Source: Escherichia coli
GTDB taxonomy: Bacteria > Pseudomonadota > Gammaproteobacteria > Enterobacterales > Enterobacteriaceae
Reading direction: 5' to 3' (one strand)
Assembly (NCBI RefSeq): GCF_003334305.1
Contig: NZ_QOWS01000026.1
DNA length: 64,000 nucleotides
Shown one piece after another: positions 10,495 to 15,211 of this stretch (position 1 is its first letter; every line of letters starts with the position of its first letter). Made by a program: the position numbers and the translations under genes. The notes beneath the pieces were generated by a model that saw nothing but the letters and a program-made list of their open reading frames with translations, made no database searches and had not been told where the DNA came from.

Positions 10495-10941
10495 ATGGCA
10501 GCTCTTACTGCAAGCTGTATTGACCTGAATATTCAGGGCAATGGCGCTTATTCCATTCTGAAGCAGTTGGCGACAATGGCGTTACAAAACGGTTTTATCA
10601 CCGACTCACACCAGTTCCTGCAAACCCTGCTGCTGCGCGAAAAAATGCACTCTACTGGATTTGGTTCCGGCATCGCCGTGCCGCACGGTAAAAGCGCCTG
10701 CGTTAAACAACCGTTCGTGTTATTCGCCCGCAAAGCGCAGGCTATTGACTGGAAAGCCAGCGATGGCGAAGACGTCAATTGCTGGATCTGCCTCGGCGTG
10801 CCGCAAAGCGGCGAAGAGGATCAGGTCAAAATCATCGGTACACTGTGTCGCAAAATTATCCACCAGGATTTTATTCACCAACTGCGACGAGGCGACGCCG
10901 ACCAGGTGTTTGCCTTGTTAAATCAAACCCTCAGCTCATAA
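10495..10941 (+). CDS. frvA: PTS fructose-like EIIA component
   Basis: 148 aa with PTS EIIA-2 His motif (GIAVPHGK). Confidence 0.85.
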   Translation: MAALTASCIDLNIQGNGAYSILKQLATMALQNGFITDSHQFLQTLLLREKMHSTGFGSGIAVPHGKSACVKQPFVLFARKAQAIDWKASDGEDVNCWICLGVPQSGEEDQVKIIGTLCRKIIHQDFIHQLRRGDADQVFALLNQTLSS

Positions 10942-10951
10942 GGAAGTGGCG

Positions 10952-12403: not shown

Positions 12404-13463
12404 GTTACTGCAACAGTTGTGCGAAGCCAGCGCCGTCAGCGGCGATGAACAGGAAGTTCGCGACATTCTGATAAACACGCTGGAACCTTGCGTTAATGAA
12501 ATCACCTTTGATGGTCTGGGCAGCTTTGTTGCCCGTAAGGGGAATAAAGGTCCAAAAGTTGCCGTTGTCGGGCATATGGATGAAGTCGGCTTTATGGTCA
12601 CCCACATCGACGAGAGCGGTTTTCTGCGCTTCACCACCATTGGCGGCTGGTGGAATCAGTCGATGCTCAACCACCGGGTAACCATACGCACACACAAGGG
12701 ATTTAAAATCCCTGGTGTGATTGGTTCCGTCGCGCCTCATGCGTTAACGGAAAAGCAAAAGCAACAACCGCTGTCATTTGATGAGATGTTCATTGATATT
12801 GGCGCGAACAGTCGCGAAGAAGCGGAAAAGCGCGGCGTTGAAATTGGCGATTTTATTAGCCCGGAAGCCAATTTTGCCTGCTGGGGCGAAGATAAAGTAG
12901 TCGGAAAGGCGCTGGATAACCGCATCGGCTGCGCGATGATGGCGGAGCTACTACAGACAGTAAATAACCCAGAAATTACGCTGTACGGCGTTGGCAGTGT
13001 GGAAGAAGAAGTTGGGCTACGCGGGGCACAAACCTCGGCGGAACACATTAAACCGGATGTGGTGATTGTGCTGGATACCGCTGTCGCAGGTGATGTTCCG
13101 GGCATTGATAACATTAAATACCCGCTGAAACTGGGCCAGGGGCCGGGGCTGATGCTGTTTGACAAGCGCTACTTCCCCAACCAGAAACTGGTAGCAGCGT
13201 TTAAAAACTGTGCCACGCAGAATGATTTACCGCTGCAATTTTCCACCATGAAAACCGGAGCGACGGATGGCGGGCGCTACAACGTGATGGGCGGCGGGCG
13301 TCCGGTTGTCGCGCTGTGTCTGCCAACTCGTTATCTGCACGCCAACAGCGGTATGATTTCAAAAGCCGATTACGATGCTCTGCTCACGCTGATACGGGGT
13401 TTTCTGACCACCTTAACTGCGGAGAAAGTCAACGCGTTTAGCCAGTTCCGTCAGGTGGATTAA
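12393..13463 (+). CDS. frvX: M42-family aminopeptidase / cellulase-like protein FrvX
   Basis: 356 aa MNIELLQQLCEASAVSGDEQEVRDIL, M42 peptidase fold motifs. Confidence 0.85.
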   Translation: MNIELLQQLCEASAVSGDEQEVRDILINTLEPCVNEITFDGLGSFVARKGNKGPKVAVVGHMDEVGFMVTHIDESGFLRFTTIGGWWNQSMLNHRVTIRTHKGFKIPGVIGSVAPHALTEKQKQQPLSFDEMFIDIGANSREEAEKRGVEIGDFISPEANFACWGEDKVVGKALDNRIGCAMMAELLQTVNNPEITLYGVGSVEEEVGLRGAQTSAEHIKPDVVIVLDTAVAGDVPGIDNIKYPLKLGQGPGLMLFDKRYFPNQKLVAAFKNCATQNDLPLQFSTMKTGATDGGRYNVMGGGRPVVALCLPTRYLHANSGMISKADYDALLTLIRGFLTTLTAEKVNAFSQFRQVD

Positions 13464-15211
13464 TGCTAAACGAACGCCAGTTAAAGATTGTCGATCTGCT
13501 GGAGCAACAGCCGCGCACGCCTGGTGAGCTGGCGCAACAGACTGGCGTTTCAGGCAGGACCATCCTGCGTGATATTGACTATCTCAACTTTACCCTTAAC
13601 GGCAAAGCCCGCATTTCCGCCAGTGGTAGTGCGGGCTATCAGCTGGAAATCTTCGAGCGCCGCAGCTTTTTTCAGTTGCTGCAAAAGCACGATAACGACG
13701 ATCGGCTGCTGGCACTGTTATTACTGAATACCTTTACTCCCCGTGCGCAACTCGCCTCGGCGCTTAATTTGCCAGAAACGTGGGTCGCAGAGCGTCTGCC
13801 CCGGTTAAAACAGCGTTATGAACGCGCTTGTTGCCTGGCCAGCCGCCCCGGTTTGGGCCATTTCATTGATGAGACAGAAGAGAAGCGCGTTATCTTGCTG
13901 GCGAACTTGCTGCGCAAAGATCCGTTTTTAATTCCGCTGGCGGGCGTAACACGAGACAACCTTCAGCATTTATCCACGGCCTGCGACAACCAACACCGCT
14001 GGCCGCTCATGCAGGGTGATTATCTCTCCAGCCTGATTCTGGCGATTTACGCCCTGCGTAATCAACTGACCGATGAGTGGCCGCAATATCCCGGTGACGA
14101 GATAAAACAAATCGTTGAACATAGCGGTCTGTTTCTTGGTGATAACGCTGTAAGAACCCTGACAGGTTTGATAGAGAAACAGCATCAGCAAGCGCAGATA
14201 ATTTCTGCCGATAATGTGCAGCGGTTGCTGCAAAGGGTGCCGGGCATCGCGTCATTGAATATTATTGATACGCAGCTGGTTGAGAACATTACCGGGCATT
14301 TATTACGTTGCCTTGCCGCACCGGTGTGGATTGCTGAGCACCGCCAAAGCAGCATGAATAACCTGAAAGCCGCCTGGCCTGCGGCCTTTGATATGAGTCT
14401 GCACTTTATTACGCTACTGCGTGAACAGCTCGATATTCCCCTTTTCGACAGCGATCTGATCGGTTTGTATTTTGCCTGTGCGCTGGAACGGCATCAAAAC
14501 GAACGCCAGCCGATCATTTTGCTCTCGGACCAGAACGCGATTGCCACTATTAATCAGCTCGCCATTGAGCGCGATGTTTTACATTGTCGGGTGATTATTG
14601 CCCGTAGCTTAAGCGAACTTGTTGCCATTCGCGAAGAGATTGAGCCGTTATTGATCATTAACAACAGCCATTATTTACTGGATGACGCGGTAAATAATTA
14701 CATCACCGTAAAAAATATCATTACGGCTGCCGGTATCGAACAAATAAAACATTTTCTGGCGACGGCATTTATTCGCCAACAGCCGGAGCGTTTTTTCTCT
14801 GCCCCCGGAAGTTTTCATTATTCGAATGTACGCGGTGAAAGCTGGCAACATATTACCCGGCAAATTTGTGCGCAATTAGTCGCACAACACCATATTACCG
14901 CCGATGAAGCACAACGCATCATCGCCCGCGAAGGCGAAGGTGAAAACCTGATTGTTAATCGCCTCGCCATCCCACATTGCTGGAGCGAACAGGAGCGACG
15001 TTTTCGTGGATTTTTTATTACCCTCGCCCAACCAGTTGAGGTGAATAACGAAGTCATTAACCATGTCTTGATCGCCTGCGCCGCCGCCGATGCGCGTCAT
15101 GAGCTAAAAATATTTAGCTATCTGGCAAGCGTATTGTGTCAGCATCCGGCAGAGGTTATTGCCGGGTTAACAGGATATGAGGCATTTATGGAGTTACTTC
15201 ACAAGGGGTGA
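13463..15211 (+). CDS. frvR: frv operon transcriptional regulator (HTH plus PRD/EIIA-like domains)
   Basis: 582 aa, N-terminal HTH (LKIVDLLEQQPRTPGELAQQTGVSGRTILRDIDYL). Confidence 0.85.
   Translation: MLNERQLKIVDLLEQQPRTPGELAQQTGVSGRTILRDIDYLNFTLNGKARISASGSAGYQLEIFERRSFFQLLQKHDNDDRLLALLLLNTFTPRAQLASALNLPETWVAERLPRLKQRYERACCLASRPGLGHFIDETEEKRVILLANLLRKDPFLIPLAGVTRDNLQHLSTACDNQHRWPLMQGDYLSSLILAIYALRNQLTDEWPQYPGDEIKQIVEHSGLFLGDNAVRTLTGLIEKQHQQAQIISADNVQRLLQRVPGIASLNIIDTQLVENITGHLLRCLAAPVWIAEHRQSSMNNLKAAWPAAFDMSLHFITLLREQLDIPLFDSDLIGLYFACALERHQNERQPIILLSDQNAIATINQLAIERDVLHCRVIIARSLSELVAIREEIEPLLIINNSHYLLDDAVNNYITVKNIITAAGIEQIKHFLATAFIRQQPERFFSAPGSFHYSNVRGESWQHITRQICAQLVAQHHITADEAQRIIAREGEGENLIVNRLAIPHCWSEQERRFRGFFITLAQPVEVNNEVINHVLIACAAADARHELKIFSYLASVLCQHPAEVIAGLTGYEAFMELLHKG

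Follow-up and report, generated by a model that had tools for sequence, protein, structure and literature searches.

The frvABXR locus and its gene products

We analyzed frvABXR, the operon for one of the orphan phosphotransferase systems (PTSs) of Escherichia coli, in a 64,000-nucleotide (nt) stretch of E. coli contig NZ_QOWS01000026.1 (assembly GCF_003334305.1), from here on referred to as the window. Four consecutive, tightly packed open reading frames (ORFs) on the plus strand occupy window positions 10495 to 15211 and contain no internal stops, as stated in an earlier note on this DNA, which had described four intact frames:

10495-10941, plus strand: frvA, RefSeq start; 148 amino acids (aa); PTS EIIA protein of the fructose/mannitol type
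10952-12403, plus strand: frvB, RefSeq start; 483 aa; PTS EIIBC protein of the fructose-like family
12393-13463, plus strand: frvX, RefSeq start; 356 aa; M42-family dinuclear metallopeptidase
13463-15211, plus strand: frvR, RefSeq start; 582 aa; regulator

The gene starts used here are the RefSeq start codons; the ORF list had longer GTG/TTG starts at 10946 and 12387. frvA and frvB are separated by 10 nt, frvB and frvX overlap by 11 nt, and frvX and frvR overlap by 1 nt (TAATG). From this spacing, frvR shares a transcript with the structural genes and is translationally coupled to them.

The 5.1-kb stretch from 10183 to 15260 is 100% identical to E. coli H15 (NZ_CP010178.1), in which RefSeq annotates frvA, frvB, frvX, and frvR between rhaM and yiiG. 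In the window, the operon is flanked by rhaBADM upstream and by yiiG, fdhD, and fdoG downstream, and each of the four Frv proteins exceeds its NCBIfam equivalog cut-off. frvABXR of K-12 MG1655 (b3900 to b3897) has the same genes, order, overlaps, and flanks (rhaM and yiiG) and is also an allele without a porin gene; it has ~97% nucleotide identity to the window, and the rhaM-frvA spacer is 312 nt in the window and 300 nt in K-12. The window locus is the chromosomal frvABXR of E. coli in its K-12-type, porin-less form. The identity to H15 together with the NCBIfam and Pfam matches bears out what the earlier note had proposed, i.e., frvABXR with an EIIA, an EIIBC, FrvX with an M42 fold, and a large regulator. 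The operon was already known and annotated, and our additions leave its identity unchanged; they concern the loss of a porin in this allele, the fold class and the invariant histidines of FrvR, a candidate operator shared across phyla, and a recurrent module of a PatB lyase and a peptidase. The statement that the substrate is unknown agrees with the full-text literature searched, which assigns no substrate to frv and mentions it only in passing, without functional study.

FrvA matches NF007389 with 289.8 bits (cut-off 151) and TIGR00848 with 145 bits (cut-off 103.5). Its phospho-acceptor, His64, lies in the motif GSGIAVPHGK, which is present in all nine orthologues checked. FrvB matches NF008493 with 1034 bits (cut-off 806), and its EIIB phospho-acceptor, Cys13, lies in NCPAGIAHTYM, the N-terminal CPxGxAHT loop, and is invariant in the orthologues examined.

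FrvX and the M42 peptidases of PTS operons

FrvX matches Pfam Peptidase_M42 (PF05343) at 2.3e-102 over model positions 1 to 292 of 292 and NF007367 with 839 bits (cut-off 569). Its best solved relatives are 1vhe (4e-87), which is annotated as "aminopeptidase/glucanase homolog," the M42 peptidase 5ds0, and PhTET2 (1y0r; 9e-68). The predicted metal and catalytic residues of FrvX (H61, D63, D175, E205, E206, D228, and H316) align with the motifs of 1vhe and 5ds0, and all seven are kept in YpdE, SgcX, and the Gram-positive orthologues. Their assignment to PhTET2 residues follows what we take to be the residue numbers of that enzyme.

All three M42 genes of K-12 are located in PTS operons, i.e., frvX in frvABXR, ypdE in fryBC-ypdF-ypdE-fryA, and sgcX in sgcXBCQAER. 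The three proteins are only 29 to 34% identical to one another, and the active site is complete in each. Orthologues of FrvX with at least 64% identity were found in Enterobacterales and in one Listeria-like contig only, and the next relatives have at most 44% identity. According to PMC3511314, which cites Zheng et al. 2005, YpdE is the only E. coli M42 paralogue with a characterized activity, and this activity is that of an aminopeptidase. Two M42 proteins that had been annotated as cellulases are also aminopeptidases (PMC3511314).

We note that the FrvX homologues of Shigella dysenteriae and S. boydii (P0187, P0188, P0191, and P0205) are shortened to 299 to 302 aa and named "peptidase," which suggests that frvX is decaying in Shigella.

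Frv-type cassettes in three phyla

Scanning a single genome from each species, we identified 80 loci with FrvB-type EIIBC proteins of 58 to 99% identity. At these loci, ORFs were called and clustered, and the resulting gene content was checked by tblastn (A, B, and R denote frvA-, frvB-, and frvR-type genes):

Enterobacterales, 32 loci: A-B-M42-R in 31 of 32, the exception ending at a contig edge; the peptidase is M42
Listeria sensu lato, 8 loci: A-B-M42-PatB-R, with PatB in 8 of 8; M42 intact in seven and a remnant in one
Lactobacillales and Stoquefichus, 26 loci: A-B-PatB-R, with PatB in 26 of 26 and an FrvR-like regulator in 24 of 26; a PepT-like M20 peptidase after R in four (Enterococcus and Granulicatella)
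Coriobacteriia, 14 loci: A-B-PatB-R in 13 of 14; a PepV/Sapep-like M20 peptidase after R in 13

Thus, a PatB lyase is encoded in 47 of the 48 non-enterobacterial cassettes, and an FrvR-type regulator in 74 of all 80 loci. The conserved non-enterobacterial core consists of the transporter, the PatB lyase, and FrvR, to which a clan-MH metallopeptidase is added in half of the cassettes; in the Enterobacterales cassette, the M42 peptidase is the sole enzyme. The enzyme assignments are supported by matches to family models: the Listeria-type lyase matches the PatB family C-S lyase model TIGR04350 with 364 bits (cut-off 340), the PepT-like cassette proteins match TIGR01883 with 311 to 324 bits (cut-off 274), and the dipeptidase of the Collinsella cassette matches TIGR01887 with 271 bits (cut-off 208) and also, below the cut-off, the model for the Cys-Gly-3M3SH dipeptidase. 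On a low-GC contig (L013), an RpiR-type regulator, a fused EIIABC protein, an M42 peptidase, and a PatB-like gene occur together.

The earlier note had called the peptidase gene an unusual companion for a PTS. This description does not fit the three K-12 M42 genes, all of which are in PTS operons, or the Frv-type cassettes of three phyla, which carry peptidases and the PatB lyase. The M42 peptidase is a recurrent PTS partner rather than an oddity.

In Enterobacterales, the four frv genes move as one unit through differing flanks (Citrobacter, Klebsiella, Salmonella, Enterobacter, Trabulsiella, and others), and no other catabolic enzyme was constantly linked to them among the loci compared. A cluster for a phosphofructokinase (PFK)-family kinase, Gat-type EIIB and EIIC, a class II aldolase, and an EIIA is divergent from frvABXR in Klebsiella huaxiensis (L012, 587 to 5554) and on one further contig (L002, 548 to 5396), with a decayed remnant in Salmonella houtenae (L005, 2357 to 4525). 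We considered this cluster as a downstream pathway for frv and rejected it as a constant partner; it has its own EIIA, EIIB, and EIIC and is absent from most loci.

Several other candidate cassette genes were also discarded. An ORF family beside frvB in Collinsella (f16) is an antisense artefact, and tblastn places PatB there on the sense strand; a 371-aa gene after frvR in Stoquefichus, considered as a peptidase, encodes a YhgA-like transposase; and a PatB gene convergent to frvR in Superficieibacter (L030) is an unrelated paralogue with ~29% identity to the cassette PatB. A GH38 mannosidase-like gene, a HAD phosphatase, and a PL8 lyase near some Gram-positive cassettes are inconsistent across taxa. 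The GH38 gene, which resembles mannosylglycerate hydrolase, is convergent to the cassette in Companilactobacillus bobalius and C. pullicola (L060, 13176 to 15809, minus strand; L062); it scores 733 bits, below the cut-off of 1138, and was found in only two or three loci. Finally, one assembly titled "Chryseobacterium sp. 18061" (L032, CACSKA010000012.1) carries an enterobacterial frv locus with an FrvB of 88% identity. Its flanks match those of Citrobacter sp. 18056, which comes from the same study, and mislabelling or contamination of this assembly is probable.

FrvB has a median identity of 76.8% between Enterobacterales and Listeria versus 66.5% between Listeria and Lactobacillales, and FrvR, FrvX, and, more weakly, FrvA have the same Enterobacterales-Listeria nearest-neighbor relation. 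That the enterobacterial and Listeria cassettes are sisters points to an inter-phylum transfer between Enterobacterales and Listeria, in either direction. The GC content of the frv cassette is E. coli-like (52.5%), and the transfer would therefore be old.

FrvR and the region upstream of frvA

FrvR matches its NCBIfam equivalog with 1051 bits (cut-off 426) and contains the Pfam domains HTH_11 (residues 5 to 60; 8e-10) and PTS_EIIA_2 (residues 455 to 560; 4.5e-13). Sequence searches found no solved structural relative of FrvR, and a fold search was used instead. In the AlphaFold2 model, which was based on 25 homologues and has a mean predicted local distance difference test (pLDDT) score of 84.6, two winged helices (residues 1 to 63 and 78 to 135) are followed by a helical region (139 to 343), an alpha/beta domain (349 to 440), and the EIIA domain. 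Using Foldseek, the first ~480 residues matched MgaSpn (5way; 6.5e-10), AtxA (4r6i; 4.6e-9), and an Enterococcus faecalis Mga-family protein (3sqn; 8.4e-9), and the C terminus matched EIIA-Ntr and EIIA-Mtl. The template modeling (TM) scores against the Mga/AtxA relatives are only 0.35 to 0.43 because the relative domain orientation differs. Only 24 positions reach 95% conservation or more in a set of 73 FrvR-like proteins of three phyla; two of these, His279 and His505, are invariant (73 of 73). Because of these fold matches and the two invariant histidines, we infer that FrvR is a PTS-controlled activator of the Mga/MtlR class with predicted phosphorylation. The earlier note had given the regulator helix-turn-helix and PTS-regulatory domains; the former and the EIIA domain are recognized by Pfam, and a middle part of the PTS regulation domain (PRD) type is apparent at the level of fold only.

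To compare upstream regions, 40 enterobacterial loci were anchored on the frvA ATG. The control region and the two ends of the unit in the window have the following features:

10188-10217, plus strand: rhaM terminator hairpin (13-nt inverted repeat, then a T-run), which bounds the frv unit on its upstream side
10365-10380, no strand: CRP-like palindrome TGTG-N8-CGCA, with one mismatch to TGTG-N8-CACA
10408-10425, no strand: candidate FrvR operator TGTCATTGTTTACCGACA (TGTCA-N8-YGACA), 87 nt upstream of frvA, with the right arm CGACA
10458-10463, plus strand: probable -10 hexamer TACAAT, without a good -35
15215-15239, no strand: hairpin with perfect 12-nt arms and a 1-nt loop, located within the 49 nt that separate frvR from the convergent yiiG; likely a bidirectional terminator, judging from its sequence

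TGTCA-N8-TGACA is present at -86 to -88 from the frvA ATG in 32 of the 40 loci and TGTG-N8-CACA at -128 to -132 in ~25 of them; both palindromes have fixed positions but variable spacer letters. TACAAT or TAAAAT is located at -35 to -38 in most of the loci. The TGTCA-N8-TGACA box is also found 5' of frvA-like genes in Listeria, Lactobacillaceae, Granulicatella, and Stoquefichus; thus, it travels with the cassette and FrvR across phyla. The copy at 10408 to 10425 is the sole match in the window, and ~0.004 chance matches are expected per 220-nt upstream region (our own estimate, assuming uniform base frequencies). These patterns suggest that 10408 to 10425 is likely the FrvR operator and that the palindrome at 10365 to 10380 may be a CRP site, the latter from its pattern only. 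At the other end of the locus, 90 nt at the frvR/yiiG end are kept also in frv-deleted strains (H12).

Selection and the states of frv and the porin gene across E. coli

We determined ratios of nonsynonymous to synonymous substitutions (dN/dS) by the Nei-Gojobori method, comparing the window genes with three further E. coli alleles and with five other genera; between-genus dS was saturated for frvR, and those ratios were not used. dN/dS was 0.08 to 0.22 for frvA, 0.00 to 0.08 for frvB, 0.05 to 0.15 for frvX, and 0.06 to 0.12 for frvR, and no internal stop or frameshift was found in any allele examined. Among the E. coli alleles compared, FrvB differs by 0 to 2 amino-acid changes (99.6 to 100% identity) at a dS of ~0.10 to 0.19. 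All four frv genes are under strong purifying selection, and the operon is therefore not decaying. If "cryptic," the word used for the operon in the earlier note, means decaying, it is contradicted by these ratios (0.00 to 0.22 over all four genes); the word could then refer only to a lack of expression under laboratory conditions.

Among 5,426 complete E. coli genomes, frv is present in 4,244. In BL21, O157:H7, and others, a gene for a 464-aa porin lies between rhaM and frvA and is divergent from frvA. This porin is a full-length member of the RafY glycoporin family (Pfam Porin_8, 3.7e-154) and matched no NCBIfam family; among our loci, its gene is at 9356 to 10750 on the minus strand of L007 and is also present in L008, L009, L010, and L004 (4312 to 5538). 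A RafY-family porin gene occurs in 2,558 of the 5,426 genomes (~47%), and the porin-less spacer of the window and K-12 type occurs in 2,831. In the window, only 312 nt separate rhaM from frvA, and these contain no divergent Porin_8 gene. By subtraction, ~52% of the genomes are frv positive and porin negative, 26% have both, and 21% have the porin only; in strain 1105, the porin gene is kept, and frvABXR and part of yiiG are deleted. The porin is near frv in 11 of the 32 enterobacterial species loci, including Trabulsiella (73% identity). The last ~130 nt before frvA are homologous between porin-positive and porin-negative alleles, and the frvA control region therefore survived the porin deletion. 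K-12-type strains, including the strain of the window, have lost the divergent RafY-family porin, which is a frequent but separable neighbor of frv. We rejected the porin as an obligatory partner, as large fractions of E. coli have either frv but not the porin or the porin but not frv.

In addition, individual E. coli strains have lost frvABXR entirely or for the most part through several rare, independent IS1-associated deletions (L006, 4288 to 4985; H16 to H27), and in one strain (H4), IS1 is inserted within the operon.

A proposed function for the Frv system and its alternatives

We propose that frvABXR is a self-contained, substrate-inducible PTS module for a conjugate of a sugar with an amino acid or short peptide, with FrvX as its peptidase, FrvR as its switch, and the Listeria cassette as its sister; our confidence in this proposal is evenly balanced with our doubt. 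From sequence, family membership, and the conserved phospho-acceptors, FrvA His64 would pass phosphate from HPr to FrvB EIIB Cys13, and FrvB would import and phosphorylate the carbohydrate moiety of the cargo. Rather than a plain sugar, this cargo would be a sugar joined to an amino acid or a short peptide whose alpha-amino group is free, possibly through a Cys or Ser side chain. FrvX, an M42 aminopeptidase with complete catalytic residues, would then cleave the phosphorylated cargo hydrolytically at a peptide or amide bond. In the Gram-positive cassettes, the PatB-type C-S beta-lyase would subsequently split the amino-acid moiety from the sugar by beta-elimination, and in the Enterobacteria, which have no cassette lyase, an unlinked lyase may supply this step, or the step may be skipped. 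FrvR would bind the box at 10408 to 10425 as an activator under the control of PTS phosphorylation at His279/His505, such that the operon would be on only when phosphate is drawn off the Frv proteins by the cargo. Since aminopeptidases and PatB-type lyases alike require an alpha-amino group that is free, an amino acid or short peptide is probably attached to the sugar recognized by the PTS.

More tentatively, and with more doubt than belief, we suggest that Frv-type cassettes represent an unrecognized, horizontally mobile pathway in gut-, food-, and plant-associated Firmicutes, Coriobacteriia, and Enterobacterales for glycosylated Cys/Ser peptides, i.e., S- or O-linked glyco-amino acids or related sugar-amino acid conjugates. 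In such a pathway, the PTS would phosphorylate the sugar, a clan-MH metallopeptidase would trim the peptide, a PatB-type lyase would release the sugar-phosphate by beta-elimination, and FrvR with its box would serve as the switch; the E. coli version would be a reduced one that relies on an unlinked lyase.

Several observations weigh against the proposed function. No PatB gene is present in the window or in any of the 32 enterobacterial cassettes, and only 24 of the 48 cassettes from Gram-positive bacteria and actinobacteria include a peptidase (7 M42, 13 PepV-like, and 4 PepT-like). No glycosidase or sugar-phosphate enzyme is consistently linked across the cassettes, which leaves the fate of the sugar-phosphate unexplained. 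That the cargo is probably a sugar-amino acid or sugar-peptide conjugate is a conclusion from gene neighborhood, and to our knowledge, the characterized M42 enzymes are general aminopeptidases and none acts on sugar conjugates. As for regulation, Pfam detected no PRD (PF00874) in FrvR even at E <= 10, and the first strand-loop of its alpha/beta domain (LLSDQNAIAT) has no Cys. The E. coli copies of both conserved palindromes each have one mismatch to the cross-genus consensus. Our scan found no consensus sigma-70 promoter upstream of frvA, a result that also fits an activator-dependent promoter. Finally, ~22% of the E. coli genomes are without frv, i.e., it is dispensable in many lineages.

One alternative is that frv is a conventional PTS that takes up a free ketose or simple glycoside and that FrvX is a general cytosolic aminopeptidase that is merely co-transcribed, e.g., so that peptide turnover is tied to carbon supply, with no chemical link to the transported sugar. 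The characterized members of the fructose family, to which FrvA and FrvB belong, take fructose or mannosylglycerate; FrvX is closest to the generic TET/YsdC aminopeptidases; its paralogue YpdE is described as an aminopeptidase in the source cited above; and half of the Gram-positive cassettes are without a peptidase. However, such a chance association would have to account for M42, PepT-like M20, and PepV-like M20 peptidases that were recruited independently to the same transporter-regulator-lyase core, for the nearly universal PatB lyase outside Enterobacterales (47 of 48), and for all three E. coli M42 paralogues being in PTS operons despite their low mutual identity. Moreover, frvX overlaps both frvB and frvR, and selection on frvX matches that on the partners of the transporter. 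We regard this explanation as doubtful, though deserving of attention. Alternatively, the E. coli operon could be a silent evolutionary remnant that has lost its porin and its lyase partner, supports no pathway, and persists by inertia. The RafY-family porin present in 2,558 of 5,426 E. coli genomes is indeed absent from the window, PatB occurs in no enterobacterial cassette, no consensus promoter was found, the operator arms in E. coli are imperfect, and frv has been deleted in ~22% of the genomes and by several independent IS1 events. We consider a remnant unlikely, given the dN/dS of 0.00 to 0.22 within E. coli with zero frameshifts or stops in the alleles examined, the 0 to 2 amino-acid changes in FrvB at a dS of 0.10 to 0.19, the control region that is intact after the porin deletion, and the porin-less A-B-X-R arrangement that is kept in many other genera.

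Two further alternatives concern the enzymes themselves. FrvX could be a glycoside hydrolase, i.e., a CelM-type "endoglucanase" that cleaves a phosphorylated oligosaccharide imported via the RafY-like porin and FrvB. M42 members were historically annotated as cellulases, SgcX is still named "putative endoglucanase," and a glycoporin adjoins frv in many strains; however, two such "cellulase" M42 proteins are aminopeptidases (PMC3511314), FrvX retains the complete dinuclear-metal aminopeptidase site, and the cassettes without M42 carry bona fide peptidase families in its place, not glycosidases, making this function highly improbable. It is similarly hard to credit that the enzymes act mainly as regulators rather than in the catabolism of the cargo. 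A precedent exists in MalY of E. coli; this PatB-family lyase, whose gene accompanies the PTS gene malX, represses the maltose regulon by interaction with MalT (PMC5845896), but the catalytic residues of FrvX are strictly kept, a dedicated FrvR is present in 74 of 80 loci, and no MalT-like partner is linked.

In sum, the proposed conjugate-specific PTS module makes the substrate of this orphan system more approachable by experiment. It places the M42 gene as one of three interchangeable peptidases on a conserved core of transporter, PatB lyase, and regulator, and our results point to strains, namely porin-positive E. coli or Listeria and Lactobacillus with a complete cassette, and to a compound class (sugar-Cys/Ser or sugar-peptide conjugates), a DNA site, and residues that are worth testing.

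Other features of the window

Outside the frv locus, Rfam SECIS_3 matches window positions 18063 to 18121 (84 bits), just 3' of the stop that ends a listed 195-aa ORF at 18068; this stop would correspond to the in-frame UGA that encodes selenocysteine in fdoG (RefSeq name fdnG), the gene for the alpha subunit of formate dehydrogenase. A match to Rfam naRNA4, a REP-derived nucleoid-associated RNA, lies in the rhaA-rhaD spacer on the minus strand (8917 to 8987). The following small RNA genes were also identified:

53564-53817, minus strand: CsrC (279 bits)
54846-54964, minus strand: Spot 42 (123 bits)
46534-46641, minus strand: ES222 (135 bits)
44576-44644, minus strand: STnc370 (55 bits), which barely exceeds its threshold

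Relation to known systems

Like the Mga/AtxA virulence regulators and the PRD activators of the MtlR, LicR, and ManR type in Firmicutes, FrvR has two N-terminal winged helices, a helical PRD-like middle, and an EIIB(Gat)-like domain in the predicted structure. MtlR and LicR also share its C-terminal domain, which resembles EIIA(Mtl) and contains a conserved His. In contrast to MtlR, the EIIB(Gat)-like domain of FrvR lacks the phosphorylatable Cys expected in the P-loop. The chromosomal porin beside frv is of the same family as the RafY glycoporin of the plasmid raf operon, and its functional link to frv is putative.

The closest counterparts of the enterobacterial operon are the cassettes of Listeria sensu lato, which are orthologous (FrvA, 39%; FrvB, 77 to 78%; FrvX, 64%; FrvR, 33 to 35% identity) and have the same TGTCA-N8/9-TGACA box. 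In the Listeria cassettes, a gene for a PatB-family C-S lyase lies between the M42 gene and the regulator gene, whereas E. coli is without it. The sequence of reactions proposed here has an experimentally demonstrated precedent in Staphylococcus hominis, in which Cys-Gly-3M3SH is processed by a peptidase and then by the PatB C-S lyase (PMC11742315). In this route, a clan-MH metallopeptidase (PepV) and a PatB-family lyase act on an S-substituted cysteinyl peptide (PMC11742315). It differs from the Frv system in its import through a peptide transporter, in its unlinked enzymes, and in its S-substituent, which is an alcohol rather than a sugar; E. coli frv is also without PatB.

PTS genes are associated with such enzymes in several other systems. 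In Clostridioides difficile, the number of the gene for an Xaa-Pro aminopeptidase, CD2485, directly precedes those of the fructose-like PTS genes, CD2486 to CD2488 (PMC3510511), and based on this numbering, the theme of PTS/peptidase clusters may extend to this species. In Latilactobacillus sakei LT-13, a Lac-type PTS cluster includes two aminopeptidases, MalY, and PRD proteins (PMC5845896). Both this malY cluster and malXY of E. coli encode a PTS permease with a PatB/MalY-type lyase, and their PTS families (Lac and Glc, respectively) are unlike that of frv. Within E. coli, fry (fryBC-ypdF-ypdE-fryA) and sgc (sgcXBCQAER) are, like frv, orphan PTS operons with an M42 gene for a protein with a complete active site. 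They differ from frv in PTS family, with sgc having a Gat-type IIC, and in regulation, with a DeoR-type regulator, SgcR, in sgc and an FrvR-type regulator in neither; in the fry operon, ypdF adds an M24 peptidase. If the function proposed for frv is true, it would also bear on why PatB/MalY lyases and aminopeptidases are found in PTS operons, including malXY, fry, sgc, and the L. sakei malY cluster.

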